This document shows, piece after piece, positions 17,053 to 58,418 of a stretch of 64,000 nucleotides of DNA (positions are counted from its first letter, which is position 1; each line of letters begins with the position of its first letter). Made by a program: the position numbers and the translations under genes. Source of the DNA: Thermoplasmata archaeon (GTDB lineage: Archaea > Thermoplasmatota > Thermoplasmata > RBG-16-68-12 > SOIM01); assembly GCA_023140195.1 (NCBI GenBank), contig JAGLME010000014.1:17656-81655 (forward strand), given 5' to 3'. The notes under the pieces were generated by a model. It saw nothing but the letters and a program-made list of their open reading frames with translations, ran no database searches and was not told where the DNA came from.

Positions 17053-17943
17053 GTGGTCATGGCCGTCAAGAAGAAGATCGTGATGTTAGGGGATAGCGCT
17101 GTTGGCAAGACTAGCTTGATCAGACGCTTTGTGTTCGACAAGTTCGATGATGCCTATATATCGACAATAGGCAGCAAGGTCACCAAGAAGGAGATGGTGA
17201 TTCCCAAGGATGGCAAGGAGACCGACCTGAGGCTCATGATATGGGACGTCCTGGGGAGAGAGGGCTACACCGCAACACACTCCAGGACCTTTGCGGGCGT
17301 TCACGGTGCGATACTCGTTTGCGATATGACCCGGAGGGAGACGCTGAAGACCCTTGAACGGTATTGGATACCACTGCTCTTCGATGTCGTGGAGCACGTT
17401 CCGCTGATCTTTGCCTGCAACAAGAACGATCTGTCCGCTGATTCCGCTTTTGAGCAGGACGACCTCATTTCAATCGCATCAAGGTACAATTCGGGGTTCA
17501 AGAAAGAGCTTCCAGCCAATCTCACAACTTGTTTTTCGACCAGTGCCAAGACCGGGGAGAATGTAGAGAGCGCCTTCGAAAGCCTGGGGCATATGGTACT
17601 TGCCAAGGGGATACCTGATGACCCGATAAAGGACCTCTATGAGAGCTTGGTGGCAATGGGTAAGCACAGGCAGACGGACACCGGTACTCCTGTGGGAGCT
17701 CTTGATGCCATCATAGTCGATTTCTGTGACGATTTCAAGGATGATCGGGTGGCCATGTCTCTTCTTCGTCAGGAGATTGTCAGAGCCGGCATAGACATCA
17801 GAAGTCCGTCGAAGGAAGGTCTTCTGAAGGTTGCCGAGTACCTGGCTGAAGCTGGGGCTGAGTTCCAGGACGAGAAGACTGTTCTGGCAAACAGGGACAA
17901 GTGGATGAATCTGGCAAGGAATGTGAAAGACCAGTCGGGCTAG
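17053..17943 (+). CDS. Ras/Rab-like small GTPase with ~120-aa C-terminal helical extension
   Basis: G1 GDSAVGKT, switch I YISTIGSKV, G3 WDVLGRE, G4 CNKNDL, G5 SAKTGENV. No C-terminal Cys. GTG 17053 or ATG 17059. Confidence 0.85.
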   Translation: MVMAVKKKIVMLGDSAVGKTSLIRRFVFDKFDDAYISTIGSKVTKKEMVIPKDGKETDLRLMIWDVLGREGYTATHSRTFAGVHGAILVCDMTRRETLKTLERYWIPLLFDVVEHVPLIFACNKNDLSADSAFEQDDLISIASRYNSGFKKELPANLTTCFSTSAKTGENVESAFESLGHMVLAKGIPDDPIKDLYESLVAMGKHRQTDTGTPVGALDAIIVDFCDDFKDDRVAMSLLRQEIVRAGIDIRSPSKEGLLKVAEYLAEAGAEFQDEKTVLANRDKWMNLARNVKDQSG

Positions 17944-24081: not shown

Positions 24082-24252
24082 TAAACTCCATTATACGTCA
24101 AATTGTTGCGAATTCCGGCTAAATCACGCTAACCTTAAGTACGTCCTCGGAAATCATTGATGGATGCCTTAACCTCAGAGGTACGCCAAGAACGGTATGA
24201 GGAGGGTCGTGTCTTGAGTTTGAGGTTCTCAATACATAATGGGAGAAATCGG

Positions 24253-28458: not shown

Positions 28459-28617
28459 TTAACATCGTTATGTTTCGGGTAGCCCAGCATTTTGGCTCGA
28501 ACACACTAAGTTTAAGTATCCTTATGGAATTCATCTGACAGATTCCCCGATTGCGAAGGATGCAACTCTGAAGTGGATGGCTATCCTCGTTGGGGGGTTC
28601 TGGATATGGTAGGAGGA

Positions 28618-31600
28618 ATGAATCCAATGAGAAAGAATTCGAATAATGTGAGCGGGAAGAACAGGACTATCGGCATGCTAGCCATCGCCGCTTTCTTGGT
28701 GCTCTTCGCTTCCACGTTGGGCGTGGGATGGATATCCCTTAGCGCTGTGGCCGGTACGTCGGAAATCGACTGGATGGGTGATATTGGTCCGGAACCAACT
28801 GGTGGTTGGGGAAGCGGATGGATAAACGACACGGTCTTTGACCAGGTCGCGGTGGATTGCCGGAATCCAGCTATCGCTACAGGAGCAGGGAACTCACTGC
28901 ATGCCACCATACAATGCAATGTTTTCATCGGAGGTTGGAACATCTATTATGCCTTGTCGACCGATGGTGGAGCGACGTGGGGCGGATGGGACTTGGTCGC
29001 AAATTCCGCTGTTGCCGAAACGAATCCTGACATCTCTGTGCATCCAAGTCAAGACCGGATCTTCATAGCGTACGAACTATTGGCTGGTGCTGGCGATAAT
29101 GACATATATGTTGCCTATTCTGACGACGGTGCCACTTGGACGAACGTTCTTGTCATCAGCTCGCCCCAGAATCAGGTGAACCCAAGCGTATTGACCGAGC
29201 ATGATAACACTGGCGCGGCCTATGATGTATGGGTAGCATTCGAGCATCAGGTTGACGCTAACAACATAAACGCCATGGTTTGGAGGAGCATCGATCAGGG
29301 CGCAACATGGAGCATAGCATTGAACCATGGCGGAGCTGATCAGAACACATACGTTGATCCTGACTTGGCTTATATGCAGTGCACGGACGGTATCGACAGG
29401 CTGTACGTCGTATTCCAGGAAGGAGTCGATGCCGGTGACATGACGGACATCACATACGTGGTGTCTGAAAATGACGGAACCACCTGGCTCGCTCCCGTGA
29501 CATTCAGAACTGGAGCGAACACGGTTTCATATCCGACAATAGCAGCCTCCAGAGATGGAGACCTCGTCATGGCAGCCTGGCAAGTCAATGCGGCTGACGC
29601 GTACATAGAGTACTCCTACGATCACACTCCCGATACTCCGCTTACGGGCTGGGGCGGTGGCACCATTCGATGGGACACCGATACCAATGGGTTCGATGAT
29701 CTTGCCCCCGAGTTGAAGACCGACGGCGAGGGCATCTTCTCCAATACGATTGGTGGCAATATCTACCTTGTCTGGACTCAGGGCTCTGGGGAAAATGACG
29801 TTGTCATGTCTCAGGCGGCAGTAAGTGGATTTGGCTTCGCTGGAGCTCCTATTGAAATATCTGATACACGCGCATCTGGGTCAATCATTGTCAAAGGTCT
29901 CACAACACGAATGGGTCCGAATGATGGGTTGTGGTATCCGGCTGTGACTTTCATATTTTGGTCAACTCTATATGAAGGGATGTACACTACCCCAGGGATG
30001 CGGTCAATCGTTGACACAAACCCCTCCGGTCTGGGTACCAATGTCGACGGAACGCCGTTGACGGCACCTCAGTACTACATATGGCCCGCAGGCTATAACC
30101 ACGACCTTTGGGCACCTTCTCCACAGGCCGCCGGTCCTGGAAACCAATATAGTTGGGTCGACTGGAGCGACGCTGGAGCGCAAGGCCATGCAATAACGGC
30201 AGGAACAGTTGACATCAATTACACGGCGAACTACGACAGACAAGTCTGGATTGATATCTTTGGCTGGGACACGACCAACCTCGTCAATTTGAACGGCATA
30301 GTGGTTACAGGCGGTCCATCACCAGGGACGACTCCGTACGGAGACTGGTTCAATGATGGCCAGCTTTACAATATGGGTGTCGAAGATCCGTATAACGATG
30401 GTTTCAACGACTTTATCTTCGTGGATTGGAACACTGGATCAAATCAGAATCCGCTGCCATACACACCAATAGCCCCGGACCAGCTTACGGCTAACTATGT
30501 CCAAGTTCCGTCAACCTACTTCAGTCTCACAGTGAATCCACCTTCAGTTTCCGTATCATCGGGGGACATCGCGACTTATACAGTGACGGTCCAGTCGCAC
30601 AATGGGTACACCGGTAATGTGGATCTCACCACGGTTGCGAATCCGGGCGTCGAGAACTTTGCTCCACCGACTGTGTCTCCTCCCGCCGACGGTTCGATTA
30701 CCTCGACACTGACCATAGACACCGCGGCAGTGGCGGACGGCACATATCCGTTCACAATAGAAGGATTTGACGGACTGTTCACCAACAACACTGCAGCCGA
30801 GCTTGTCATTGCTACGCCGTACTTCAAGATTGATGTGATTCCGACAACAAGATTGATCGCGCCTGGCGAGACTACAACATACACGGTCAACGTGTCATCG
30901 TTCGTCGGCTACAATGGCCAAGTGGATTTGAACGTCACCGGCGTTCCGGCACCGGCATCCGGTAGCTTCACTCCTGACATAGTGACAGTTCCAGCTGACG
31001 GATACATACTGTCTACACTGGAGATCACCGGCACGGCTGGAGTATCTGACGCGGTGTATCAGCTGACAATCACCGGCGACGACTACACTCTGCCACAAGA
31101 GGTTCAGATCGTGGACCTCGATGTGCAGACGGTTCCATTGTTCTCGATTGGTGCTAGTCCCATTTTGAACCAGGTCAGCCCAGGAGGCTCAGCGGACTAC
31201 GTCATAACCTTCACATCGTTCAACGGCTATTGGGGAAATGTCAGCGTAAGTGTTGAGCATTCCATACTTTCCACACATGCAACATTCTCATTCGCTTCCC
31301 CTGTTGACGTACCACCACCCTCGAATTCCACCACGATCACAATCACAACAACTGCCAGCATACCCGACGGAGACTACACGATAACCGTCTACGGTGAGGA
31401 TCCCTTGCTTCCAGCGAACCGCAGGAACAAGAGCATCCAGATCACCCTGAACGTCTCCAGCATGGTGCCAGGGACCATTTCCGGAACAGTCACGGACCAG
31501 AACGGTGATACTGTCGAGGATGCTGATGTGGAGTTGCAGGATGATCAGGGCAACCCAGTTGAGACGACCCAGACGGACAACTTTGGCGTCTACTCATTCA

Positions 31601-32319
31601 CTGACGTCGATCCAGGCGACTACACCGTCATAGCCACGAAGACCGGTTATAAGAGTGATCAAGGCGACGTGACTCTCGGATCCGGCGGATCCGAAACGCG
31701 AGACCTTCAGATCGAACAGGGAACGATCAGGGGAAAAGTGGTCGACGAGGACGGGAAGGGCATTGAGGATGCCGACGTGGAACTGCGCGACGATAACGGC
31801 GATCTTGTGCGCGAAACGAAGACGGACGCCGGCGGTAACTTCCGCTTCGATGACCTGCCGTTGGGAACATACACGGTCATAATCAAAGCCAGTGGCTACG
31901 ATACCCGCACGGAAGACGGAATCGTGGTCGACGAGGACGACAATGTTAATAACCTCGGATCGCTGGATGTGACCCCGGAGGCCGCGGCTGGCAACTTCCT
32001 CGCCGACTACTGGTGGCTACTGCTCATCATAATCATAATCGTGGTTGTGTTGATACTGGTGCTCATGTTGGCCAAGAGGAAGAAGCCAGCCCCAGAGGAA
32101 GCACCGCCCGAGTATGCGACGGCACAGGTTCCAGAAGGACAGGCACCTCCCTACCAGGAGGCACCTGCGGAACAGCCCCCATACCAGGAGGCCCCGCCAG
32201 AGCAATATCCACCACAGGAACCACAGCCAGAGCAGTACCCCGAGGAACCGCAGCCAGAGACACCTCCAGAGGAAACTCCCCCGGAGACACCTCCGGAAGG
32301 ATATCCTCCTGAAGAGTAG
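28618..32319 (+). CDS. giant surface protein, paralogue of 24253-28233
   Basis: ATG 28618 is preceded by AGGAGG (the ORF opens at 28573). Signal anchor MLAIAAFLVLFAS. Asp-boxes STDGGATW, SDDGATWT, SIDQGATW, SENDGTTW. Same domain order, same TM helix and Pro-rich tail. Confidence 0.85.
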   Translation: MNPMRKNSNNVSGKNRTIGMLAIAAFLVLFASTLGVGWISLSAVAGTSEIDWMGDIGPEPTGGWGSGWINDTVFDQVAVDCRNPAIATGAGNSLHATIQCNVFIGGWNIYYALSTDGGATWGGWDLVANSAVAETNPDISVHPSQDRIFIAYELLAGAGDNDIYVAYSDDGATWTNVLVISSPQNQVNPSVLTEHDNTGAAYDVWVAFEHQVDANNINAMVWRSIDQGATWSIALNHGGADQNTYVDPDLAYMQCTDGIDRLYVVFQEGVDAGDMTDITYVVSENDGTTWLAPVTFRTGANTVSYPTIAASRDGDLVMAAWQVNAADAYIEYSYDHTPDTPLTGWGGGTIRWDTDTNGFDDLAPELKTDGEGIFSNTIGGNIYLVWTQGSGENDVVMSQAAVSGFGFAGAPIEISDTRASGSIIVKGLTTRMGPNDGLWYPAVTFIFWSTLYEGMYTTPGMRSIVDTNPSGLGTNVDGTPLTAPQYYIWPAGYNHDLWAPSPQAAGPGNQYSWVDWSDAGAQGHAITAGTVDINYTANYDRQVWIDIFGWDTTNLVNLNGIVVTGGPSPGTTPYGDWFNDGQLYNMGVEDPYNDGFNDFIFVDWNTGSNQNPLPYTPIAPDQLTANYVQVPSTYFSLTVNPPSVSVSSGDIATYTVTVQSHNGYTGNVDLTTVANPGVENFAPPTVSPPADGSITSTLTIDTAAVADGTYPFTIEGFDGLFTNNTAAELVIATPYFKIDVIPTTRLIAPGETTTYTVNVSSFVGYNGQVDLNVTGVPAPASGSFTPDIVTVPADGYILSTLEITGTAGVSDAVYQLTITGDDYTLPQEVQIVDLDVQTVPLFSIGASPILNQVSPGGSADYVITFTSFNGYWGNVSVSVEHSILSTHATFSFASPVDVPPPSNSTTITITTTASIPDGDYTITVYGEDPLLPANRRNKSIQITLNVSSMVPGTISGTVTDQNGDTVEDADVELQDDQGNPVETTQTDNFGVYSFTDVDPGDYTVIATKTGYKSDQGDVTLGSGGSETRDLQIEQGTIRGKVVDEDGKGIEDADVELRDDNGDLVRETKTDAGGNFRFDDLPLGTYTVIIKASGYDTRTEDGIVVDEDDNVNNLGSLDVTPEAAAGNFLADYWWLLLIIIIIVVVLILVLMLAKRKKPAPEEAPPEYATAQVPEGQAPPYQEAPAEQPPYQEAPPEQYPPQEPQPEQYPEEPQPETPPEETPPETPPEGYPPEE

Positions 32320-32605: not shown

Positions 32606-34975
32606 TTGATGGAACTCCCGCCGGGCAAAACGGTCGAATCCCTTTTCGGAGGAAGAGACGTGCTTGTCAGTCTACTTGACAGCCTGAACCAGCACAATCT
32701 GACCGGCTTCATCAGGACCAGCCTGTTTCGGGACGATGTTCGGTCCGAGGGCATGATGGTATTCCACAAAGGATCAGCGGTGATGGCCGACCACAAGTCG
32801 GATTCGTATCTGCTGGGTGTTGATTCAATCAGGGAGATCCTGCGGGATTCTCTGGACGAAGACTGCGTTCTGGAGGTCCATTCGTATGATTACAAATCCT
32901 CCATGATAAGCATCCCACATCTTGCTGGCAATCACCCTGATGCTGCGGTTTCGGATCTGCCAAACATGGTCTCTCTTTTGACCGAAGTTGAGTCCGAGGA
33001 GCGGAGGCGAAGGGAGGAACACCTCAGGGAGCTCGAGGAGAGGGAGGTCCGTGCGGACAAGGCCACTGCAGACCTTGAGGCATTGCAGGGCCAGAAGATC
33101 AGGTTCGAGCAGGAACAGAGGAAGTATCAACAGCAGGAAGAGGAACTTCGACATCTCCGGGAGGAGATGCAGACGGTCAAGGACAAGAGCCTAGAACTGA
33201 TGAGCCAGATCAGCGTCCAGAGGGAGAAGGAGCAGGCCCTGTCCGAAGCCGAGAAGAAGCTGGAACAGATCAAACTCAGCAAAGAGAGGGAGGAGCTCAA
33301 GGATTTCGGTCTGAGACTCCAGGCAAAAGAGAAGGAACTTCTGGGAAAGGAAAGGGAACTCAGCGGTATGGAAACGGCACTGGCGGCAATAGAGGAGCAG
33401 AGAGAGAACGAGAAACAACTCCTCAATCGGGAGAGGACCGAACTGAACAACATATGGAAGGAACTGTCCAATGAGACCGGTCGGATCTCCGAGGCCAGAA
33501 AGCTCTTCGAGAAGAGGGCCGAGGAAGCAATCCACAGGGAGAAGGAACTGGCCAGAATGGAAGGAACCCTAGAGAAGCTCAAGGACAAGCAGGAATCCGA
33601 GAAGCATGAGATGGATGAGGATCAAACACTCCTCAAGGAGAAGGAGGCCGAGCTGGAGAAGAAGGAGGAGTCTGCGGACCAAAGGGCAAAGGAGCTCGAG
33701 TCACTTCATTCCAGATTGAAGGATCTGGATAACGCCCTCAAGAACAGGGAGAATGAGATCAGGTCTCTGGAAAAGGATGCCAAATCCGAAGGTAAAGGGC
33801 TCCGGTCCGAGATGGACAAGCTGGTTGCCGAAAAGATGTCTCTTGACAACATCGACTCGGATATGAAGGAGAGGGAGAGGGATCTCAGGAGCTCGGAGAA
33901 GAAGCTCCAGAAGAGGGAGAAGGAGTTCGAACGGAAGTTCAGGGCCCTGGAGGACGATAGAAAGGAGCTGGATGCCACCAAGAAAGAACTGGATATGAAG
34001 AAGGTCCAGAACGCAGCCTGGTACCAGAAGGTGGAGAACAGGTCAAAGTCACTCATTGAATTGGAGGAGGAGCTCAAGAGCAGGAGCTCCCGGGCGAAGA
34101 AGCAGTTGGCCGAGGCGAAGAAGAGGACCAAGATCGCGAACCAGATGGAGAGGGAGCTCAAAAAGAGGCGGTCAGAACTTGACAGATTTGAGTTCGAGTT
34201 GGCGGCGGTCTCAAAGGACCTGGAGGCGCGGGAAGGATCGTCCGAGAAGAAGGATCATCGACTTGCCATGAAGGAGATCGAACTGGAGGAGAAGTTCTCG
34301 GTCATCAAGAATGGCCTGGAGGACAAGAAGGCAACCGCCGAAGAGAAGGCCAAAGATCTGGAATCCAGGGGGAGGTCCTTAGATGAATTCGACGGGGAAT
34401 TAGTTTCAAGAGAACGCGAGCTGGAAGAACTGGAGAAGAACCTCCTCGTGAAGAAGAAGGAAATGATGTCCTTGGAGAAGAAACTGGAGAAGACGGCGAG
34501 TTCGCTTCGATTGACCGAGGATGAGCTGGCCAAACGGACAGAGATGTCCAGAGAGCGTGCAGAGAAGGAATCCAAGGACCTGAATAAGAAGGAAAAGAAG
34601 CTCAAGAGCAAAGAAACCTCACTCACTTCCCAGGAGAAGGAACTCTCCCAGCTGGAGGAGACCCTAGGGGCCAGGGAGAAGGACCTAACTGACAGGGCTT
34701 CTGGACTGAGGATTGGCCTGGTCGAGATCGAAAAGGAGAAGGATGAGCTGGGTGAGACGCAAGAAAGGCTGTCCGCCCTTGAGAAGAAGCTGAAGAAGAG
34801 AGAAATCAGGGCCACAGCAAAAGAGAAGCGGACCAAGGAGAAGCTGGAAAAAGAGCTCGTCCAGAAGGAGAGGGAGCTTGCTCAGAAGGAACAGAGGCTT
34901 CTGGAGAAGGAGAAGCAACTTGCCAAAAGCGCACAGGAACTGGAAGAGCTCAAGGAGAGCCTCCGGTCGCTCTAA
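32606..34975 (+). CDS. coiled-coil-rich protein with ~130-aa globular N-terminal domain
   Basis: 789 aa. After the N-terminal domain there are about 650 residues of E/K/R/L-rich heptad-like sequence with no P-loop. TTG 32606 or ATG 32609. Confidence 0.8.
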   Translation: MMELPPGKTVESLFGGRDVLVSLLDSLNQHNLTGFIRTSLFRDDVRSEGMMVFHKGSAVMADHKSDSYLLGVDSIREILRDSLDEDCVLEVHSYDYKSSMISIPHLAGNHPDAAVSDLPNMVSLLTEVESEERRRREEHLRELEEREVRADKATADLEALQGQKIRFEQEQRKYQQQEEELRHLREEMQTVKDKSLELMSQISVQREKEQALSEAEKKLEQIKLSKEREELKDFGLRLQAKEKELLGKERELSGMETALAAIEEQRENEKQLLNRERTELNNIWKELSNETGRISEARKLFEKRAEEAIHREKELARMEGTLEKLKDKQESEKHEMDEDQTLLKEKEAELEKKEESADQRAKELESLHSRLKDLDNALKNRENEIRSLEKDAKSEGKGLRSEMDKLVAEKMSLDNIDSDMKERERDLRSSEKKLQKREKEFERKFRALEDDRKELDATKKELDMKKVQNAAWYQKVENRSKSLIELEEELKSRSSRAKKQLAEAKKRTKIANQMERELKKRRSELDRFEFELAAVSKDLEAREGSSEKKDHRLAMKEIELEEKFSVIKNGLEDKKATAEEKAKDLESRGRSLDEFDGELVSRERELEELEKNLLVKKKEMMSLEKKLEKTASSLRLTEDELAKRTEMSRERAEKESKDLNKKEKKLKSKETSLTSQEKELSQLEETLGAREKDLTDRASGLRIGLVEIEKEKDELGETQERLSALEKKLKKREIRATAKEKRTKEKLEKELVQKERELAQKEQRLLEKEKQLAKSAQELEELKESLRSL

Positions 34976-48266: not shown

Positions 48267-48280
48267 ACACTTTTAAGTAG
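48267..48280 (+). promoter_or_regulatory. TATA-box promoter of first tandem GTPase gene
   Basis: ACACTTTTAAGTAG about 50 nt upstream of GTG 48328. Shares the ACTTTTAAGTA core with 48926-48941 and 49602-49617. Confidence 0.45.
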
Positions 48281-48327
48281 AAACGGAAGGCTGGAATTCC
48301 CATACTGCCAGCGTTGGACTTGCGAGT

Positions 48328-48903
48328 GTGACTATCGTGAGCGAACTCGAAAAGGTAAAGGCGAAGATTTGTCTCGTTGGAGAGGCTGCAGTGGGTAAGA
48401 CCTCACTCATAAGGCGGTACGTTCTCGACGATTTTGACGACAAGTACATTACGACTCTTGGTGCGAAGGTGTCCAAGAAGAAGATGGAGTTCGATGTGCC
48501 CAACAACGGTATGCGCGTCGGAATGGACATGACCATCTGGGACATTATGGGAGAGAAGGGGTTCAGGGACCTGGTGAAAGAAGCTTTCTTCGTTGGGACC
48601 CGAGGGGTACTGGCGGTGTGCGACATAACTCGGTATGATACGCTGAAAGAACTGGATGATTGGGTCCAGTCCGTTTTCAAGGTGGTCGGGAACATCCCGG
48701 TGATCTTCGCTGTCAACAAGGTCGATCTCAAGGACGAGGTACTTCTGATGTACGGTGACACCGAGCTCGACCAGGCATCCAGAGCGTTCGATGCACACTA
48801 TCTGTACACCAGTGCAAAGACGGGTGAGAACGTCGAGGAAGCTTTCAGGTTGATGGGCGAGAGGATTGTTGAATCCAGTATATCTCCTCGATTGGCGAAG
48901 TGA
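48328..48903 (+). CDS. Ras/Rab-like small GTPase
   Basis: G1 GEAAVGKT, switch I YITTLGAKV, G3 WDIMGEKG, G4 VNKVDL, G5 SAKTGENV. 191 aa, no CaaX. Confidence 0.85.
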   Translation: MTIVSELEKVKAKICLVGEAAVGKTSLIRRYVLDDFDDKYITTLGAKVSKKKMEFDVPNNGMRVGMDMTIWDIMGEKGFRDLVKEAFFVGTRGVLAVCDITRYDTLKELDDWVQSVFKVVGNIPVIFAVNKVDLKDEVLLMYGDTELDQASRAFDAHYLYTSAKTGENVEEAFRLMGERIVESSISPRLAK

Positions 48904-48925
48904 TAGACACCCGTGAGAATCCACT

Positions 48926-48941
48926 CGATACTTTTAAGTAT
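48926..48941 (+). promoter_or_regulatory. palindromic TATA-box element upstream of second GTPase gene
   Basis: CGATACTTTTAAGTAT, identical to 49602-49617. GATACT-TTTA-AGTATC forms a 6-bp inverted repeat. The ATG at 48965 is about 26-33 nt downstream (leaderless-like). Confidence 0.5.
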
Positions 48942-48964
48942 CTCAGAATTATAGAAATACCCTG

Positions 48965-49570
48965 ATGGGTCCTGACTTTTCTGAAGGTGGAGAATCCGTG
49001 TCGACATCCGGAGCGCAGACCAAGAAGGTGAAGAGCAAGATTTGCCTCATCGGAGAGAAGGCTGTGGGCAAGACCAGTCTGATAAGACAGTACGTTACTA
49101 ACATGTTCGACGACAGATACATCACCACCGTCGGTACGAAGGTCTCCAAGAAGGAGATGTTGATAAAGAAGCCTGAGCACGGTTTCGACGTTCAGATCGA
49201 CATGACCATATGGGACATCATGGGGGAAAAAGGATTCAGGGAGCTACTGAAGGATGCCTATTTCTACGGCGCCAATGGAATACTCGGGGTGGCGGACATC
49301 ACCCGGGAGAAGACGTTGGACGACCTGGACGATTGGATCGACTCCACACTGAAGACCGCTGGAAAGATACCGCTTCTGATCGCGATCAACAAGACCGATC
49401 TGGAAGAGGCAGTGCAGGTGGGCGACAAAGAGGTTCTTCAGCTGGCAAAGGCCTTCAATTGCCCGTTCATCTACACGAGCGCCAAGGAGGGCAACAACGT
49501 GGAGGATGCGTTCTACCAGTTGGGTGAGATGACCTTGGACGCCCAGTTGGGTTTTGTGAAGCCTGAGTGA
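48965..49570 (+). CDS. Ras/Rab-like small GTPase
   Basis: G1 GEKAVGKT, switch I YITTVGTKV, G3 WDIMGEKG, G4 INKTDL, G5 SAKEGNNV. 201 aa, no CaaX. Confidence 0.85.
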   Translation: MGPDFSEGGESVSTSGAQTKKVKSKICLIGEKAVGKTSLIRQYVTNMFDDRYITTVGTKVSKKEMLIKKPEHGFDVQIDMTIWDIMGEKGFRELLKDAYFYGANGILGVADITREKTLDDLDDWIDSTLKTAGKIPLLIAINKTDLEEAVQVGDKEVLQLAKAFNCPFIYTSAKEGNNVEDAFYQLGEMTLDAQLGFVKPE

Positions 49571-49601
49571 TATTCGCTGGTTTCTGAGCCAGACCATTAT
49601 C

Positions 49602-49617
49602 CGATACTTTTAAGTAT
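49602..49617 (+). promoter_or_regulatory. second copy of the 16-nt TATA-box element, upstream of giant surface-protein gene
   Basis: CGATACTTTTAAGTAT lies about 160 nt upstream of ATG 49778. An in-frame TAG 6 codons upstream of that ATG excludes a longer ORF. Confidence 0.45.
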
Positions 49618-49777
49618 TTCCCGCTTAATGAGAAAGGTTGCATTCCCTTGTCGATTTGCGTGTATACTTGGTAATGTCCCTATTGGAGAAGACGACAGCA
49701 GACTTGAGCTACTGGGGCTGAAGCCAGCATCGGGGTGTGAAGAAGGGGGAACTGTTCCCTAGCCTCGGGGAAAAGCC

Positions 49778-52700
49778 ATGAGAGATCCCAACCTCACACG
49801 GAAGGCAATCCATCTCCTCGTTCTAATCGTTGTAGTGCAGAGCATAATGGCGGGATTCTCAAACAGGCCTGTCTCCGGCCAAGAGCCAGTGGTCTCTGAT
49901 GTTGGTAGCTGGAGGAGAACCGCCACTTGGGGATTAGACGATCCTGGGAACTACACATTGAATAATGTCAACTTCCAAAGTGGAAGTGCGAATCTCACCC
50001 TCAACGACTTCTCATGGTCCGAAAGCAATCAGAGTGATTTCATGGACGGTTCTTGGGACGACAATGTCACGATTACGCCAGATGGGAACTTGACGCTGAA
50101 ACATGATGATACAAACCTCATCCAGAATGGGGATTTCAGCGCTGATTCGGATTGGACGTATTCCAATGGAACGGGGGGCAATGTCATCGCTGAACGCGAT
50201 GGAGTTCTGAACAACTCACATCTCCACCACTTTGAGCCAGTGCAACTCCCACTTTTCTTTGACAGAATGGACAGCGAGGCTAACTGGTTTTGGATTGGAA
50301 ACTCCTCTGGTGGCTCGAAATCCCTCAACACTTCCCTGCCCCATGAAGGGGGTGCATCCATACGGGTCAACTGGACACCCAGTAGCCCCGACAAGTGGGC
50401 TGGTATGATTCGAACTGCACCTACACAATGGGATTGGTCATCCTACAACAGGTTGAGTATGTGGCTAGCGACAGGCTATGACGGGGGCAATCTCGAGAGT
50501 CATCTTACGTTGATGGATGTGAATACAGTCAGTTGGGACTCTCCCAGGGAACTGGTCTCGGGAGATTGGAGTGAGCGTGTCTTTGATTTGGATGGGTTCA
50601 CTGGCAACATCTCGCGGGTCAAGGAGATTTCCATCAAGTTCACGGGCATCGGTGGTTCTGTGAACATGAGCGTTTCCATCGACGACATCAAACTATATCG
50701 AGTGAAGATCTTCGAGGAAACCGGTTACGTAAATCAAACCTTTGCAAAAGCCAATGTGACTGAAAACATCCCGGGAAATGTCATGTTGAGCTTTGATGTT
50801 CTAATCGAGGAACGTACGAACGTAGTAGATTCCAACCTCACTCTTCTGGTTATGAATTCGACAAGTAATTTCACGTGGGAAAAGAATCTGACCACTCCGC
50901 CCTATTCGAGTCATATCATTGCAGATCTGAGTTGGCTCATGATTAAGGACGGTAGCTACAATCTTAGTCTTCAACTTCATTTGTCGGTAAACACCCGTAT
51001 GGTAACGAGTTATTCCGTCAGGTTTGACAACATCACAATTATCGCCCATAATCGCAAGAACGGAACGTATCTGTCTGAATCCTATGACACGCAGTCCCAG
51101 TCTCTATGGAAGAACATAGCTTGGACCGAGGGCCAACCAGATCCAGAGACGAACATCAGCATTATGACAAGAACTGGGAACTCCAGCAACACATCCGATG
51201 GGTCATGGTCTGGCTGGGACACACATCTTGCCAACTCAATCATGTCACCTCCAAACAGGTACATCCAATACAGGGTCGGCCTCAACACCACAAACGCCAG
51301 CAAGGGTCCGATGCTCACCAACATCAGCTTGAGTTATGACCAATACCCTCGAATCGGCACCGTTGAAACAGACAACTTCACTGTACCAGATATTCACTCC
51401 TGGGAGATCTTTGAGGTAAACGAGACCATTCTCCCCGAGACCGAGATAGACTACTACTTCTCCTCTGACCTTGGCAGTAATTGGGTCCCCATGGGCGACG
51501 GGGCCAACCTCTCATTCGTCACAAACAACACCATCAAACTGAAAGCCGAGCTCAAGACATCCAACACCACCTTCACTCCACAGTTGCTTGAGTTTAGACT
51601 CACCTACGAGTACACGGGGCCGCTCGACCACATCCACATGTCTGATTCGCTCTTGTCCACGACTGCCAACACCACCCTCTTCCTGTCGGCCTGGGGCCAC
51701 GATATACTTCATCGTAACGTCACATTCACCCAGAAATGGGAAACGACCGATCCGCTGGGCAATGTAATCCAATTCGGGAGCTACACTGCCGGCAAGGTCG
51801 GGAGCTGGAGGGTCTACTGCAACAACACCGCTGACACCATCTCCAACTGGACCACGGTCGATGTGTCAGCAGGTTCTATATTCCGAATTGGGATCGATCC
51901 GTGGGACCCTGGAACGCTTACCGCGGATGACGAACTTCGGTTCAATGCCACTGGCTACGATGCGATGGACAACCCCTTTACTATCACTCCCAACTGGTCC
52001 GTATCAGGCGGTATTGGCACTGTAGATTCTGGCCCGAACGCCACATCCCTCTTCCAGGCCACTCAAACCGGAACGGGTCGGGTCAGCATAACTGACGGAA
52101 TCCATACGAACCAAACCAACCTCTTCTCCGTGATTGCTGGACAACTGGCCTCGATTGCCGTAAACCCCTCTTCCAAGGACCTCCTGCCCGACCAGTCAAC
52201 CGTCTTCACGGCTCAGGGATATGACGGGGATGGGAACCCACTGACACTCACTTCCACATCTTGGGAAACGAACGCAGGCACCATAACCGGGAGCACACCT
52301 ACCATTGCCGACTTCACCGCCCAATCCACGGAGCTGTTGGGGGGATACGTCAGGGCAACCCAGGATTCCATTTCAGGTGAGGCCGTTGTCAACGTGAATG
52401 ACAATGACGATCCACCGCGGATCCAAGGCGTTGTGCCAGACCAGCTGAAGACCGAGGACCATGGTACGTGGACGCTGGACCTTTCTACCTTCGCCAGCGA
52501 TCAGGAGGATGACGATTCCAAACTCAAGTGGAGGGTCACTGGGGATGATTCATCCCTATACACGATTGCAGGAGAGGACCAACCCGGGAACCATGTTCTC
52601 ACATTCTCCACAAAGCAGGACGCGAACGGCAACAACGGGGTCACGCTCTGGTTGATTGATACTCGTGGCCAAACCTCCCAGCAGTCGCTCTGGGTCAACA

Positions 52701-54637
52701 TCACCCCTGTGAATGACAGACCATCGATATTTGCCCCGGAAAAGGTCTTTGTCAGGTTCGATGTGCCAAGTCCTGAGGACTACTCCTCATATGTCGATGA
52801 TGTGGACAACCCCATTGGAGATCTAACGATATCCACAGACGATCCTGGTCACACGTCAGTTCAAGGCCTGGAGGTCACTTACGAGTACCCAGAGAGCATG
52901 GTGGGGGAATCAGTCCTTGTCATCCTCACGGTTTCAGACGGGCTTGACCAGGCTCAGGACGTGGTGGAGGTCATCGTGAGCAGCAACTACCCTCCCCGCA
53001 CTCTCACCCCAATCCCGGATGTTGTCATAGACGAGGACGAGATCCTCAACGATCATTTCGACCTGAACGACCACTTCGAAGATCCGGACGACAGTGAACT
53101 CACCTTCGGGTCACTCTCTCAGAGAGTGGGAATAGACATCGACTCCAACGGTTTGGTCTCCCTCCACCCGGAGGCGAACTGGTTCGGAGACGAATTGGTG
53201 ATGTTCTCCGCTACGGACAGTTCTGGCGCGGTTGCGTACGATCCGGTGTCCGTCAGCGTGCTCCCCATCAACGATCCACCCAGCATTGGAGGCTTGCCAG
53301 ACATAACGATTCACTATGGCATCACATTCGACTTCGATGTCTCACCCTACATTTCTGACGTTGACAATCTGATCAGTGAGCTGACGATCTTCTGCTCGGA
53401 TCCTGGCTGCTCGACCATTCAGGGCACCACCATCTCGTTCACGTATCTGACTGAGACGACGGTCCTGGTGACCGTTACCGTCAGCGATGGGGAGTATCAG
53501 GATTCTGATAACATGGAGGTCCGAGTGACAGACAACAATCCGCCCGTGTCCAAAGGTCTTCCAGATGTGTTCTTCAATGAAGATGAGGCTCTTCAGTCTG
53601 CATTTGACCTTGACCATTATTTCAGCGATTTGGAGGGCGACGCTCTTACCTTCTCGGTCAACCAGACCCAGTCCTACGTCCAGGTCTTAATTGGGATCGA
53701 CAACGTGGTATCATTCTCTTCATCCGAGAACTGGAGCGGCCAACAGATCATTGTATTCAGGGCCGTTGACGAGGACGCTGCGGTCGTTGAGGACTCGATC
53801 ATTGCCACAGTGATCCCTGTGAACGATGCTCCCGTCATCTCCCCGATTCCAAGGCAGAGTGGCGAGAAGAACAAGGCCTGGCTGCTCGATCTGACTTCAT
53901 ACATCTTTGATTCCGACAACAAGACCGACGACCTTTGGATAGAGTCTGACTTTGAATATGTGGTAGTGGCCGGACACTTCCTGATTTTCAATTGCGAAGA
54001 GAGCTTCGATTCGAGGGATGCCAGGGCAACCGTGAACGATGGTCTGCTTCAGAGCTCCAGCCCATTCGAGGTCAGCGTCACCTCTCCTGTCAACCCTCAG
54101 GTCGAGATGTACATATGGCCGACGTCGATAGGTATCATCCTGCTGGGATTGGTCGGATTGCTTTACTGGAGAGCATCCAGGGGTTTTGTGCTGGAGGATC
54201 TCTTCGTTATCGGAAAGGACGGAAAACTCCGGGTCCACAAGAGCACGCGGACCAGACCAGACAGAGATGAGGATCTTTTCTCCGGAATGTTGACCGTCAT
54301 TCGAGATTTCACCGCAGACACCTTCAGGGAAGAAAAGGGCACCCTGAAGTCTTTCGAGCTGGAAGAGGATAAGAAGGTCATCATGGAGTCTGCAGAGGGC
54401 TTCTATGTAGCATTGATTTTCTCTGGAAAGGAACCCCGGTGGGCGCCGAAGTCGCTTGAAGCCTTCTCCCAGGACATGGAGACCATGTACGGTCCTTTGA
54501 TCACGTCTTGGTCAGGAGCCATGGATGAGTTGGGAGACCTTCCTAATATGGCCGATTTCTTCATACATAAGAGAAGATACAGCGTCGGGGATTGGCAACC
54601 AACTGAAGATGAACTATCGTTCGAAGAAGCGGACTAA
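49778..54637 (+). CDS. giant sequon-rich surface protein with Ig/cadherin-like repeats, one TM helix and a cytoplasmic alpha/beta domain
   Basis: Signal anchor LLVLIVVVQSIMAGFS. About three dozen N-x-S/T sequons in the first ~700 aa. Repeats ending in VNDRP / INDPP / VNDAP. TM MYIWPTSIGIILLGLVGLLYW (54107-54169). C-terminal ~150 aa resembles the insert of 18008-20974. Confidence 0.9.
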   Translation: MRDPNLTRKAIHLLVLIVVVQSIMAGFSNRPVSGQEPVVSDVGSWRRTATWGLDDPGNYTLNNVNFQSGSANLTLNDFSWSESNQSDFMDGSWDDNVTITPDGNLTLKHDDTNLIQNGDFSADSDWTYSNGTGGNVIAERDGVLNNSHLHHFEPVQLPLFFDRMDSEANWFWIGNSSGGSKSLNTSLPHEGGASIRVNWTPSSPDKWAGMIRTAPTQWDWSSYNRLSMWLATGYDGGNLESHLTLMDVNTVSWDSPRELVSGDWSERVFDLDGFTGNISRVKEISIKFTGIGGSVNMSVSIDDIKLYRVKIFEETGYVNQTFAKANVTENIPGNVMLSFDVLIEERTNVVDSNLTLLVMNSTSNFTWEKNLTTPPYSSHIIADLSWLMIKDGSYNLSLQLHLSVNTRMVTSYSVRFDNITIIAHNRKNGTYLSESYDTQSQSLWKNIAWTEGQPDPETNISIMTRTGNSSNTSDGSWSGWDTHLANSIMSPPNRYIQYRVGLNTTNASKGPMLTNISLSYDQYPRIGTVETDNFTVPDIHSWEIFEVNETILPETEIDYYFSSDLGSNWVPMGDGANLSFVTNNTIKLKAELKTSNTTFTPQLLEFRLTYEYTGPLDHIHMSDSLLSTTANTTLFLSAWGHDILHRNVTFTQKWETTDPLGNVIQFGSYTAGKVGSWRVYCNNTADTISNWTTVDVSAGSIFRIGIDPWDPGTLTADDELRFNATGYDAMDNPFTITPNWSVSGGIGTVDSGPNATSLFQATQTGTGRVSITDGIHTNQTNLFSVIAGQLASIAVNPSSKDLLPDQSTVFTAQGYDGDGNPLTLTSTSWETNAGTITGSTPTIADFTAQSTELLGGYVRATQDSISGEAVVNVNDNDDPPRIQGVVPDQLKTEDHGTWTLDLSTFASDQEDDDSKLKWRVTGDDSSLYTIAGEDQPGNHVLTFSTKQDANGNNGVTLWLIDTRGQTSQQSLWVNITPVNDRPSIFAPEKVFVRFDVPSPEDYSSYVDDVDNPIGDLTISTDDPGHTSVQGLEVTYEYPESMVGESVLVILTVSDGLDQAQDVVEVIVSSNYPPRTLTPIPDVVIDEDEILNDHFDLNDHFEDPDDSELTFGSLSQRVGIDIDSNGLVSLHPEANWFGDELVMFSATDSSGAVAYDPVSVSVLPINDPPSIGGLPDITIHYGITFDFDVSPYISDVDNLISELTIFCSDPGCSTIQGTTISFTYLTETTVLVTVTVSDGEYQDSDNMEVRVTDNNPPVSKGLPDVFFNEDEALQSAFDLDHYFSDLEGDALTFSVNQTQSYVQVLIGIDNVVSFSSSENWSGQQIIVFRAVDEDAAVVEDSIIATVIPVNDAPVISPIPRQSGEKNKAWLLDLTSYIFDSDNKTDDLWIESDFEYVVVAGHFLIFNCEESFDSRDARATVNDGLLQSSSPFEVSVTSPVNPQVEMYIWPTSIGIILLGLVGLLYWRASRGFVLEDLFVIGKDGKLRVHKSTRTRPDRDEDLFSGMLTVIRDFTADTFREEKGTLKSFELEEDKKVIMESAEGFYVALIFSGKEPRWAPKSLEAFSQDMETMYGPLITSWSGAMDELGDLPNMADFFIHKRRYSVGDWQPTEDELSFEEAD

Positions 54638-55263: not shown

Positions 55264-56646
55264 TTATCCACTCTTCCTGTGCGCCGGGTGATACTTCTCT
55301 ATGGTCTCTCTATCGATCTTGGTCAGCATGCTCTCGTCCACTTTGCTGAGCAGGTCCCATGTAATCTCCAGGGTCTTCTCTATGTCTCGGTCCTCTTCCC
55401 TTCCCTGCCGGACCAGCTTGTCCTCGAAGACGTCCGCGAAGTCCAGGAGCTTCCTGTCCCTTTCCGTGAGAGCTTCCTTGCCAACGATGGCCACTAGGCC
55501 TCTGAGATCCCTTCCTTCAGCGTATGCAGCGTAGCTCTGGTCGGATACCTGCTTGTGGTCCTCTCTGGTCTGGCCAGGTCCTATCCCAGCGTCCATCAGT
55601 CTCGACAGAGATGGGGACACATCCAGAGGCGGATAGATACCTTTCCTGTGCAGTTCCCTGGAAACGACCAATTGGCCTTCGGTAATGTATGCGCTGAGAT
55701 CTGGTATGGGGTGCGTTATGTCATCATCCGGCATCGTAAGGATCGGGATCTGGGTGATCGAACCCTTCTTGCCTTTGATCTTCCCCGCTCTCTCATACAT
55801 TGTGGCCAGATCGGTGTACATATAACCGGGATATCCTCGTCTTCCAGGAACCTCTTCTCTTGCCGCTCCGATTTGTCTCAACGCTTCGCAGTAGTTCGTG
55901 AGGTCGGTCAGGATGACCAGAATGTGATAATCATGCTCGAAAGCCAGGTATTCGGCGGCCGTCAATGCCATTCTCGGCGTGATCAACCGTTCGACCGCAG
56001 GATCGTCGGCGAGGTTCAGGAACAGAACAGCTCTTTTGAGCGCTCCGGTCCGCTCGAAGTCTCTCATGAATATCTGTGCTTCCTCATGTGTGATGCCCAT
56101 TGCGGCAAAGACCACCGCGAAAGCCTCTTCCTTTCCCGGAACCTTCGCTTGTCTTGCGATCTGAAGGGCGATCTCGTTGTGTGGCAGACCAGATCCAGAG
56201 AATATGGGTAGTTTCTGACCCCGGACCAGCGTGTTCATGCCGTCGATGGTCGAAATGCCCGTCTGAATGAACTCCTTGGGCGAGTCCCTGGCGTAGGGAT
56301 TAATCGCAGCGCCACCGATCTCGAGTCTCTTCTCCGGAATGACCGGCGGACCTCCGTCCAACGGATTGCCACCGCCGGAGAGGATCCTTCCCAGCATGTC
56401 CTTTGACACGTTCAGCTTGGCGGTCTCTCCTAGGAACTTGACGCTGGATGCCTTGTCGATGCCCGCGGTGCCTTCGAAGATCTGAATCACGACCAGGTCC
56501 TTGGAAGTGTCCAGAACCTGTCCTCTCTTCGTCGTGCCATCCGGTAAGCCGACTTCCACCAGTTCTCCATACCCAACCCATTCGGTCTTCTCCACGAAGA
56601 CCAGCGGACCGGCGATCTCGGTTATCGTCCTGTATTCCTTGCTCAT
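55264..56646 (-). CDS. atpB: A-type ATP synthase subunit B
   Basis: [32 protein letters not shown] motifs; 460 aa. Confidence 0.95.
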
Positions 56647-58418
56647 GAGGTCACCTCCAGGTCCCGGAATTCCTTTTCCATCAGTTCACTGATCACCTTG
56701 AGCTTTCCATCGAAGTCCTCCTCGAACTTCAGCTTTGCCAGCTCATCTCTCGATTTGAGATACGCAATGTCCTTTACCGGAACCTCCAGTGCCAAAGCCT
56801 TCTCCGCAAGGTCCGAGTACTTCTTTATCTGGTTGAGGAGGAGGAACTGCTTGTTCAACTCGCAGTAGGTGTCAACCTTGTGGAACGCGTTCTGCTGAAG
56901 GACGAATTCCCTGATCATCCTGGCGATCTCCAATGTAAGTTGCTGTTGTTCGGGCAGCGCATCGGAACCAACCAGCTGGACAATCTCCTGCAGTTCCGCT
57001 TCGGTCTGCAGTGTGGCCATCGACCATTCCCTGAGTGACGACCAATCGGAATCCACTTCCTTGTCGAACCAATCCTTCACTATCTGGTTATACAGGCTGT
57101 ACGAGGTGAGCCAGTTGATGGCCGGGAAATGTCTTCTTTCCCTCAACTTTGTGTCCAGAGCCCAGAAGACCTTCACGATACGCAGTGTTCCCTGCGTGAC
57201 CGGTTCTGAGAAATCGCCTCCAGGAGGTGAGACCGCACCAACGACCGATACTGATCCTTCCTTTCCGCTGAGGGTTGAGACGCGACCAGCCCTCTCGTAG
57301 AACTCTGAGAGCTTTGACGAAAGGTAAGCTGGATATCCCTCCTCTCCCGGCATCTCTTCCAGTCTGGATGAGATCTCCCTCATCGCCTCGGCCCATCTGC
57401 TGGTACTGTCCGCCATCAGGGAGACGTCGTAGCCCATGTCCCTGTAGTATTCTGCAATCGTGATTCCGGTGTATACGGATGCTTCCCTGGCAGCGACCGG
57501 CATGTTGCTGGTGTTGGCGATTAGCACAGTCCTTTCCATCAACGGAGCTCCGGTTCTGGGGTCCTCCAATTTCGGGAAATCGGACAGAACCTCGGTCATC
57601 TCGTTCCCCCTCTCTCCGCAGCCGATGTACACGACGATCTCGGAGTCGCACCACTTCGCCAGCTGATGTTCAGTGACCGTCTTTCCCGTGCCAAAACCGC
57701 CGGGGATGGCAGCAGTCCCACCTTTAGCCAGCGGGAAGAACATGTCCAAGACCCTCTGCCCAGTGATCAGCGGGATATCCGGCATGAGCTTGTCCTTGCT
57801 CGGCCTCGGCAATCTCACCGGCCACTTTTGCATCAGTTTTATCTTCGATCCGTTGTCGAGCGTGCAGACGGTGTCCTCCACGGTGTACTCGCCTTCTTGT
57901 ATGCTTGAGATCTTCCCACTTATTCTCGGGGGGACCATGATCCGGTGCTCCACGTTCTTTGCCTCTTGCACGGTTCCTATGATCTGACCACCTGTGACAT
58001 CTTCGCCTACGCTTGCCGTGGGAACGAACTTCCATCTCTTGCTCCTGTCGAGCCCGGGAGCGGAGACTCCTCTCCTGATGTACTCTCCCATTTGCTCAAC
58101 CAATACTGGAAGGGGCCTCTGAACGCCATCGTAGATACTGCCCAGCAACCCAGGTCCGAGCTCTACCACCAGGGGCAAGCCAGTGTCTATGACCTTCTCA
58201 CCCGGCCTGATGCCGCTGGTGTCCTCGTACACCTGGATGATCGTCTTGTCCCCAACGATCTTTATGACCTCTCCCATCAATAGTTCTTCACCCACATGGA
58301 CAACGTCGTACATCTTGGGAGCAATGCCAGTGGCTGTTACGACGGGTCCCGCGACCCGGAATATCTCACCACCGCGTCCCAAAGCCGACGATTCCGGTTC
58401 CTTCGTTCTCATTTCCAC
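56643..58418 (-). CDS. atpA: A-type ATP synthase catalytic subunit A
   Basis: Walker A GGFGTGKT and [10 protein letters not shown]. 591 aa, no intein-sized insertion. Confidence 0.95.

Follow-up and report, generated by a model that had tools for sequence, protein, structure and literature searches.

Small GTPases and their longin or roadblock partners organise eukaryotic membranes, and the prokaryotic roots of this arrangement are debated. In prokaryotes, the pairing of GTPases with roadblock proteins is considered an ancient one (PMC4316618, PMC3521125). In the actinobacterial conservon, a sensor kinase-like protein (CvnA) stands with a roadblock protein (CvnB), a DUF742 protein (CvnC) and a GTPase (CvnD), and this set has been proposed as a system resembling G-protein-coupled receptors (PMC4316618). 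Wuichet and Sogaard-Andersen reported that Rup GTPases are coupled to MglB in 0 of 121 cases and that archaeal Rup genes are without conserved neighbours, and Surkont and Pereira-Leal described lone Rab-like genes in Thermoplasmatales, with no partner reported in the passages searched. In the Asgard archaeon MK-D1, GTPase genes generally lie outside operons with longin or roadblock genes, and because the genes are not linked, Asgard GTPases cannot be matched to regulators (PMC10933270). The ArvA system, which is the only experimentally characterised archaeal small-GTPase system found in our literature search, consists of an Arf-like GTPase with an N-terminal amphipathic helix, ArvB (DUF2073) encoded directly downstream and ArvC (DUF2072) encoded nearby (PMC10927574). 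Here we describe a locus within a 64,000-nucleotide stretch of DNA from a Thermoplasmata archaeon (contig JAGLME010000014.1; the whole stretch is hereafter the window), in which two genes for Rab-like GTPases, G1 and G2, precede a gene for a giant surface receptor whose cytoplasmic tail is predicted to adopt a longin-type fold. We consider it fairly probable that this three-gene module of a Thermoplasmata archaeon resembling Methanomassiliicoccales encodes a longin platform anchored in the membrane, on which dedicated Rab-like GTPases are docked or regulated.

The three genes lie on the forward strand in the order G1 (48328-48903, 191 amino acids), G2 (48965-49570, 201 amino acids) and receptor (49778-54637, 1619 amino acids, from the list of open reading frames, ORFs). 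G1 and G2 match Pfam Ras with E-values of 1e-29 and 6e-35, respectively, and are 54-55% identical to each other, which agrees with an earlier reading made from the letters without database searches (the sequence-only reading) that two paralogous GTPase genes lie head-to-tail at these positions. Their Pfam bit scores are 104-121 for Ras, 37-43 for Arf and ~22 for MMR_HSR1; Roc, like Arf, falls below Ras, and the families of translation and ribosome-assembly GTPases are marginal. When PDB sequences were ranked by hidden Markov model (HMM)/phmmer search, the top matches were Sec4, Rab7, Rab8, Rab21 and a Thorarchaeota Rab (E 1e-22 with G2), and orthologues carry the NCBI label 'Rab family GTPase'. 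Taken together, the Pfam scores and the PDB ranking place these proteins in the Ras/Rab class that the sequence-only reading had proposed, and not among GTPases of translation or ribosome assembly.

The Ras-superfamily motifs, which are G1 (GxxxxGK[ST]), the G2 switch-I Thr, G3 (DxxG), G4 (NKxD) and G5 (SAK), are intact in both proteins and in G3, a third paralogue in the window that is discussed below, and all five are kept in 78-79 of 79 aligned relatives. Judged by these conserved motifs, G1 and G2 are bona fide Ras/Rab-like switches. The C-terminal Cys prenylation motif of Rab proteins was not found, as the two proteins end in ...SISPRLAK and ...LGFVKPE; because this Cys is absent, we class them as Rab-like by sequence score and not as Rab proper. 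A search for the catalytic Gln (DxxGQ) also failed. The G3 motif of the G1 and G2 proteins reads DIMGE, which puts Glu at the position of the Ras catalytic Gln, and the third paralogue has Arg there. Among relatives, the residue that follows the glycine of this motif is Glu in 65/79 and Gln in 12/79 only. By analogy with Rap and group-1 Rup proteins, these GTPases may require a catalytic residue supplied in trans.

The cytoplasmic end of the receptor contains the predicted longin-type domain (54170-54580, residues 1465-1601, 137 amino acids), followed by a short acidic C-terminal tail to 54634. The tail has no match in Pfam or NCBIfam, and Pfam returned none even at E <= 10. Because a word-indexed homologue search yielded only 3 proteins with the tail alone and 6 with a 29-sequence profile, an exhaustive profile HMM search was needed, which recovered 4,128 cluster representatives with a threshold of E <= 1e-3 and 1,823 with one of E <= 1e-10. 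Several architectures recur in this family: proteins composed of a signal peptide, ectodomain, transmembrane helix and tail; inserts in STAND ATPases; small stand-alone proteins; four-transmembrane-helix proteins with two tandem copies; and giant soluble proteins (1,100-2,400 amino acids) with two or three copies. Positions kept throughout the family include H23, R26/27 (an Arg that ends strand beta2), D33, D35, D50 and W114-x-G116, and the conserved polar residues suggest a functional surface.

An AlphaFold2 (AF2) model of the tail, built from the 29-sequence alignment, has a mean predicted local distance difference test score (pLDDT) of 87.5 and a predicted template modelling score (pTM) of 0.82. 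According to DSSP, the model contains strands (E) and helices (H) at E7-15, E20-25, H30-51, E60-63, E68-74, E78-85, H92-112 and H118-134. This beta-beta-alpha-beta-beta-beta-alpha-alpha topology is the longin order, in which the N-terminal helix is absent and an additional C-terminal helix is present, as described for the longin arrangement (PMC10933270). In a Foldseek comparison with the PDB, longin domains ranked first with a probability of 1.0. Template modelling (TM) scores were 0.68/0.73 (TMq/TMt) for Sec22b at a root-mean-square deviation of 3.2, 0.66 for Ykt6, 0.62 for VAMP7, 0.66 for TRAPPC and 0.53-0.62 for AP sigma. Roadblock proteins, including MglC, MglB, LAMTOR and an Asgard roadblock, matched at lower TM scores of 0.32-0.56, and the Rag C-terminal domain was also matched. 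The sequence-only reading had called the tail Roadblock/longin-like; the structural comparison does relate it to longin and then to roadblock regulators of GTPases. A test for the roadblock/LC7 family (MglB-like, PF03259), which has alpha-beta-beta-alpha-beta-beta-beta topology with an N-terminal helix, failed: the model has no N-terminal helix, and Robl_LC7 was reached below threshold only. Among 29 family members, such sub-threshold echoes were found for Robl_LC7 in 5/29 (best E 0.007) and for Intu_longin_1 in 2/29 (E 0.024). On the predicted model, we place the tail and roadblock domains in one superfamily as separate families.

By E-value, the three lowest Foldseek matches are subunits of coats (AP sigma and COPI zeta), and Sec22b comes next, which raises an alternative in which the tail acts like a coat sigma/zeta subunit or a SNARE longin and the GTPases drive membrane remodelling or the formation of extracellular vesicles, with the receptor as cargo or nucleator. 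The requirement of Haloferax ArvA for vesicle formation provides an experimental precedent for an archaeal small GTPase in such a role (PMC10927574). However, Foldseek cannot distinguish longin subtypes at the 11-17% identity of these matches, a SNARE motif is absent, and the order of transmembrane helix then longin domain is the reverse of that in longin SNAREs. Moreover, G1 and G2 score far higher as Ras than as Arf and are thus not ArvA-like, the DUF2073 and DUF2072 neighbours are absent, and the locus holds no further coat-like genes. We regard this alternative as very improbable.

In favour of a platform that serves GTPases, a second gene pair in the same window combines the same two elements. 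G3 (17053-17943, forward strand, 296 amino acids; Pfam Ras E 5e-28) is ~40% identical to its paralogues G1 and G2 and lies 65 bp upstream of a gene for a STAND (AAA_16) ATPase with TPR repeats (18008-20974, forward strand, 988 amino acids). This ATPase carries a longin-type insert at residues 93-231 (18284-18700), between Walker A and Walker B. The receptor tail aligns to these residues (BLASTP E 5e-12, 26% identity), so the homology noticed in the sequence-only reading is real. G3 has a C-terminal extension of 112 amino acids, which is 47-62% identical in GTPases encoded beside other STAND-longin genes. Pairs of a STAND-insert gene and a long GTPase gene were found in the window, in L115 (a Hodarchaeales metagenome-assembled genome, MAG) and in metagenome contigs (loci L075/76, L089, L112 and L114). 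Convergent to the STAND gene of the window is one for a second STAND NTPase (21373-23559, reverse strand, 728 amino acids) with AAA_16/NB-ARC and TPR domains and a 188-residue N-terminal region. PADLOC gave no match for G1, G2, G3 or the receptor, and the STAND protein met only its generic TPR models; a reading of the GTPase-receptor module as part of a defence island was rejected for lack of a PADLOC match.

We also investigated whether the linkage of GTPase and tail extends beyond the window. A scan with the tail profile over one genome per GTDB species gave 72 loci, whose six-frame ORFs were then searched with GTPase and tail profiles; narrower alignments were used for the locus scans, which skews the loci to Thermoplasmata and two subfamilies. 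At 43/50 loci having enough upstream sequence, a Ras-like GTPase is encoded no more than 4 kb upstream of the gene with the tail; on the downstream side, one lies within 4 kb at 2/61 loci only. In 968 kb, 80/82 GTPase ORFs lie within 4 kb of a tail-bearing gene. Where two GTPases are present, the G1 orthologue always comes first and the G2 orthologue second. The search was also reversed, with two orthologues of G2 that lie on long contigs as starting points; in both cases the gene that follows encodes a large protein with few Pfam matches (879 or 1699 amino acids). These results answer the question of conserved synteny, which the sequence-only reading had left to comparative genomics, with an asymmetric and ordered linkage. 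Four loci (L018, L025, L033 and L063) have two tail-bearing receptors behind a single GTPase pair. In some relatives (L018 6268-7545, also L024 and L063), a 425-amino-acid protein without Pfam match is encoded between G2 and the receptor; it is helix-rich or coiled-coil by eye and is a candidate extra component or effector.

Several observations weigh against a functional link, and some of them favour an alternative in which gene order is merely inherited and the tail is a generic juxtamembrane oligomerisation or small-ligand domain of the PAS/profilin/roadblock-like fold class that has nothing to do with GTPases. The genes pyrF and atpD (encoding the A-ATPase D subunit) flank every G1-G2-receptor locus, as in the window. 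Because the set always lies between these two unrelated genes, it approximates one vertically inherited block kept by descent, and because pyrF and atpD are also conserved neighbours, adjacency alone is no proof of function. About 7/50 receptor homologues have no nearby GTPase, and the family also occurs in the giant multi-copy soluble proteins and four-helix membrane proteins described above. Many STAND-insert loci show no GTPase within their flanks, and the coupling of STAND proteins to GTPases is therefore facultative. A search through the 150 best family members for a Rosetta-stone fusion of tail and GTPase turned up none; its 'Walker A' matches were STAND fragments and not GTPase fusions. 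The fold assignment of the tail rests on a predicted model, no Pfam model for longin or roadblock domains was matched significantly by the tail or by the 29 family members, and no effector candidate is evident in the locus of the window. Finally, tail-G2 covariation is no better than controls. Distance-matrix covariation is highest for tail and G1 (raw r 0.91; partial r 0.72 given atpD, vs 0.32 for tail and pyrF), and this mirror-tree/partial Mantel signal is suggestive only; because all p-values are small through residual phylogeny, we keep it out of the main argument.

Other contexts argue against mere adjacency. At loci L043-L070, which include haloalkaliphilic Thermoplasmata, the pyrF/atpD flanks are absent and other Ras-like GTPase subtypes lie 0.1-2.4 kb upstream of the tail-bearing gene. 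In L052 and L064, mini proteins composed of a transmembrane helix and tail have a long GTPase gene immediately 3'. Together with the STAND genes, these contexts are independent support for the pairing of GTPase and tail, which is thus met again in three or more further genomic contexts and architectures, including the second pair in the window. The strong upstream/downstream asymmetry of the GTPases also counts against this alternative. Furthermore, longin and roadblock platforms dominate the 50 best-ranked structures matched by the tail model, and no PAS or GAF sensor domain is among them. A motif shared by the three genes, described next, argues in the same direction, and we consider an adjacency without function improbable. 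Among the haloalkaliphilic Thermoplasmata, some receptors are preceded by a different gene set (L056 1520-5898, also L050, L054, L057 and L060), in which the opposite strand encodes a DUF835 protein together with a Ras-like GTPase of the Gln type; these are followed by genes for a 270-amino-acid long GTPase and for a secreted PQQ-like beta-propeller/PKD protein.

Each gene of the module is preceded on the forward strand by a copy of one motif. Copy 1, the 11-mer ACTTTTAAGTA, is TATA-box-like and lies upstream of G1 (48269-48279). Copies 2 and 3 are an identical 16-mer, CGATACTTTTAAGTAT, which ends 24 nt before the start codon of G2 (48926-48941) and lies 160 nt before that of the receptor (49602-49617). 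The 16-mer occurs exactly twice in the window, where 0.01 copies are expected. Its 11-mer core, when one mismatch or fewer is allowed, occurs three times in 64 kb against 0.27 expected, with one copy ahead of each module gene and none at any other place. The pair of identical 16-mers had been seen in the sequence-only reading, and the core before G1 adds a third copy. All three copies are found at matching positions in L001 (JAUVGH010000006.1) and L003, two same-species relatives in which the receptor is 81-82%, the tail 93-98% and the GTPases 96-98% identical to those of the window. L004 and L005 keep the motif before G2 and the receptor despite a receptor identity of only 54-57%, and in high-GC relatives TTAAGTA-like cores precede the genes.

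The motif lies where an archaeal TATA box is expected, and each gene appears from these positions to be served by a separate promoter, of one type that the three genes share and that is specific to the locus. Because the 16-mer ends 24 nt before the start codon, the G2 mRNA is probably nearly leaderless. The 16-mer also contains the inverted repeat ATACTT-N2-AAGTAT, for which reason it could alternatively be a regulator site. Adjoining copy 3, CTTAATGAGAAAGGTT is conserved in L001, L003, L004 and L005. The sequence directly 3' of the receptor motif (TATTTC...CTTAATGAGAAAGGTT; window 49618-49777, L004 5462-5515, L005 5189-5257) is likewise conserved and may be a regulator-binding site or initiator region. 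An RNA element in the 160-nt receptor leader was considered and rejected, as the leader has no Rfam match and folds worse than shuffled sequences (z +2.1). One extra copy of the 8-mer TTTAAGTA is present in the window at 28511-28518, ~55 nt upstream of a gene for a 1248-amino-acid surface protein (28573-32319) with BNR_2 and CarboxypepD_reg/SdrD_B domains; a 1358-amino-acid paralogue with the same domains is encoded just upstream (24157-28233). These two surface-protein genes may share regulation with the GTPase and receptor genes.

The receptor itself is, by its sequence features, a modular type-I membrane protein. It begins with a putative signal peptide or anchor (49778-49882, residues 1-35) that contains the hydrophobic segment AIHLLVLIVVVQSIMAGF, and it has a single transmembrane helix (54107-54169, residues 1444-1464), followed on the cytoplasmic side by RASRG, as the sequence-only reading had described. 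The ectodomain between these segments consists of two modules. The N-terminal module (49883-51877, residues 36-700) was modelled with AF2 from an alignment of homologues obtained by protein search, and these 665 residues form a predicted all-beta chain (pLDDT 92.0) of jelly rolls. Foldseek matched this chain to CBM11 and CBM30 at TMt 0.65-0.66 and also to reelin repeats and CBM22, with a likeness to MAM-type jelly rolls. The membrane-proximal repeat module (51878-54106, approximately residues 700-1443) matches Big_9 and the tandem-95 repeat, the latter at 60.8 bits, which is under the curated cut-off of 90. Its V/I-N-D-x-P linkers (VNDRP at residue 978, INDPP at 1164 and VNDAP at 1348) are spaced ~185 residues apart. 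The Ig- or cadherin-like character that the sequence-only reading gave to the ectodomain therefore fits the membrane-proximal half (~residues 700-1440) and not the N-terminal 665 residues. The density of N-x-S/T sequons noted in that reading is pronounced: the ectodomain has 44, vs 19.4 +/- 3.6 after shuffling (maximum 32 in 1000 shuffles), and the 155-residue cytoplasmic end has zero. Read from this density, the receptor would be heavily N-glycosylated. With its CBM-like jelly rolls and Ig/cadherin-like repeats, the ectodomain probably binds glycan or a surface.

The architecture of the ectodomain bears on the direction in which the module operates. Short receptor orthologues (~880 amino acids) consist only of the N-terminal module, transmembrane helix and tail. 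A second receptor group has the repeat module, transmembrane helix and tail in common with the receptor of the window at 33-39% identity and differs at the N-terminus. Ectodomain modules are thus swapped among lineages, and the tail and GTPases stay. This pattern, the adhesin- or lectin-like ectodomain with its dense sequons, and the loci with two tail-bearing receptors per GTPase pair would suit an inside-out arrangement, in which the GTPases, as a polarity or assembly switch, use the tail to position, cluster, activate or turn over the adhesin, and no external signal is sensed. MglA/MglB sets a precedent in the literature, as it acts on complexes for adhesion and motility at the poles of bacterial cells. 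However, the locus contains no motility or polarity genes, the GTPases are of Ras/Rab type and not MglA type, and the data fail to separate this direction from outside-in signalling. We consider the inside-out arrangement unlikely and rank it behind a receptor that signals inward and ahead of membrane remodelling in the manner of ArvA.

We therefore return to the platform reading and propose how such a module might work. A glycosylated type-I receptor would hold the longin-type domain just inside the membrane, where the domain would be the platform on which G1 and G2 dock and their nucleotide state is regulated. A docking role is suggested because longin and roadblock domains act in this way elsewhere (MglB-MglA, Ragulator-Rag, SRX-SRbeta, TRAPP-Rab). 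Since G1 and G2 have no lipid anchor, they would reach the membrane via the receptor tail, and since Glu replaces the catalytic Gln, they would probably rely on a partner for GTP hydrolysis. Longin GTPase-activating proteins (GAPs) use an arginine finger, and by this general parallel the conserved Arg that ends beta2 of the tail is a candidate hydrolysis helper. The three genes would be transcribed from separate promoters with one common motif, and the pairing of domain and GTPase would be reused in the cytoplasm, where G3 accompanies a STAND ATPase whose NTPase core contains the domain as an insert. Gene content, predicted domain folds, conserved linkage and the shared motif are what we observe; from these we infer binding of the tail to the GTPases, a role as GAP or guanine nucleotide exchange factor (GEF), the direction of the signal and its output. 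The fuller proposal, which we hold tentatively and with less than even confidence, is that non-Asgard archaea possess a receptor-to-G-protein pathway in which glycan-binding surface receptors with a single membrane pass signal across the membrane, with the fused longin domain as the GAP or GEF for dedicated Rab-like GTPases, and that the same switch gates the assembly of STAND ATPases in the cytoplasm.

Compared with described systems, the module is a variation on the roadblock/longin-GTPase theme that fails the membership tests of MglAB, conservon, ArvABC, Rab proper and known defence systems. As in MglA/MglB, small GTPase genes adjoin a gene of the roadblock/longin superfamily, and both MglB and MglC match the tail model. 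Unlike MglB, which is a small soluble dimer, the tail is fused to a single-pass surface receptor; it has longin topology, without the N-terminal helix and with two C-terminal helices, and it is accompanied by two Ras/Rab-type ('Rup'-like) GTPases per receptor. An MglAB assignment was rejected because both the GTPase clade, in which Ras scores exceed Arf scores and Rabs dominate the PDB ranking, and the topology are wrong. The signal recognition particle receptor offers another parallel, as the longin-like SRX domain of SR-alpha binds the small GTPase SR-beta at a membrane, with one partner membrane-anchored. In that case the GTPase is anchored and the longin domain is soluble, whereas the module of the window anchors the longin domain and leaves the GTPases soluble; in addition, SR-beta is Arf-like and the window GTPases are Rab-like. 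The conservon likewise links a membrane sensor genetically with a protein of the roadblock superfamily and with a Ras-like GTPase, but the platform domain of the window is receptor-fused and archaeal, and CvnD belongs to MglA group 2 and is not Rab-like. A conservon assignment was rejected, as no histidine kinase or HATPase, separate CvnB roadblock or DUF742 is present in the three proteins or their neighbours.

The module also shares features with eukaryotic longin/roadblock platforms (Ragulator-Rag, FLCN-FNIP, the GATOR1 longin GAPs, TRAPP, Mon1-Ccz1 and DENN), which are the predicted longin-type fold of the tail and its proposed role in membrane-tethered docking and control of nucleotide state. 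In contrast to those platforms, the tail has no detectable sequence relation to Pfam longin families, it is a single receptor-fused domain and not a multi-subunit complex, and its host is a non-Asgard archaeon without known endomembranes. Asgard archaea have Rab-like GTPases and longin/roadblock proteins; a Thorarchaeota Rab matches G2, Asgard roadblock structures match the tail model, and one STAND-longin and long-GTPase pair lies in the Hodarchaeales MAG. Unlike the generally unlinked genes of Asgard MK-D1, the partners in Thermoplasmata are adjacent and conserved. The ArvA system likewise has an archaeal small GTPase at its centre, and it has conserved neighbouring regulator genes (PMC10927574). 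An ArvABC assignment was rejected, as the window GTPases are not Arf-like and have no N-terminal amphipathic helix, the gene order is G1, then G2, then receptor, and DUF2073 and DUF2072 are absent from the locus and from orthologous loci. The sequence-only reading knew of no described system of this kind, and the full texts searched likewise describe no longin domain that is fused to a receptor and linked to Rab-like GTPases, within a coverage that is incomplete and leaves a prior description possible.

The significance of these findings lies in a large unannotated longin-type family whose members are tied to particular Rab-like GTPases in two settings, within a surface receptor and within a STAND ATPase. 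The linked genes give matched pairs of GTPase and regulator that can be directly expressed and tested. If the coupling is real, archaea would have a new means of linking their surface to a switch in the cytoplasm, and longin-topology domains and Rab-like GTPases would already have cooperated outside the lineage leading to eukaryotes. Thousands of 'hypothetical' proteins would then acquire a function, and the definition of a new domain family would be warranted. The longin-Rab pairing is usually seen as a eukaryotic/Asgard innovation derived from roadblock/MglB; if the receptor-to-G-protein pathway is true, the pairing would be an older and widespread archaeal signalling device (>4,000 sequence clusters).

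The genes around the module encode pyruvate:ferredoxin oxidoreductase, orotidine-5'-monophosphate decarboxylase and A-type ATPase subunits, which mark the window as archaeal. The nearest public sequences are Thermoplasmata/Methanomassiliicoccales MAGs, among which L001 has a tail identity of 98%. Elsewhere in the window, two long ORFs (14899-16890, reverse strand, 663 amino acids; 32606-34975, forward strand, 789 amino acids) are without Pfam match. In L117, an exosortase/archaeosortase-family gene (PF09721, 13866-14747) lies directly 3' of the 1699-amino-acid receptor orthologue on the opposite strand; such a gene is not at the matching position in the window. The A-ATPase subunit A of the window (56643-58418, 591 amino acids) is without an intein, and the catalytic subunit that adjoins the module in L116 (13702-16552) has an intein with a LAGLIDADG domain.

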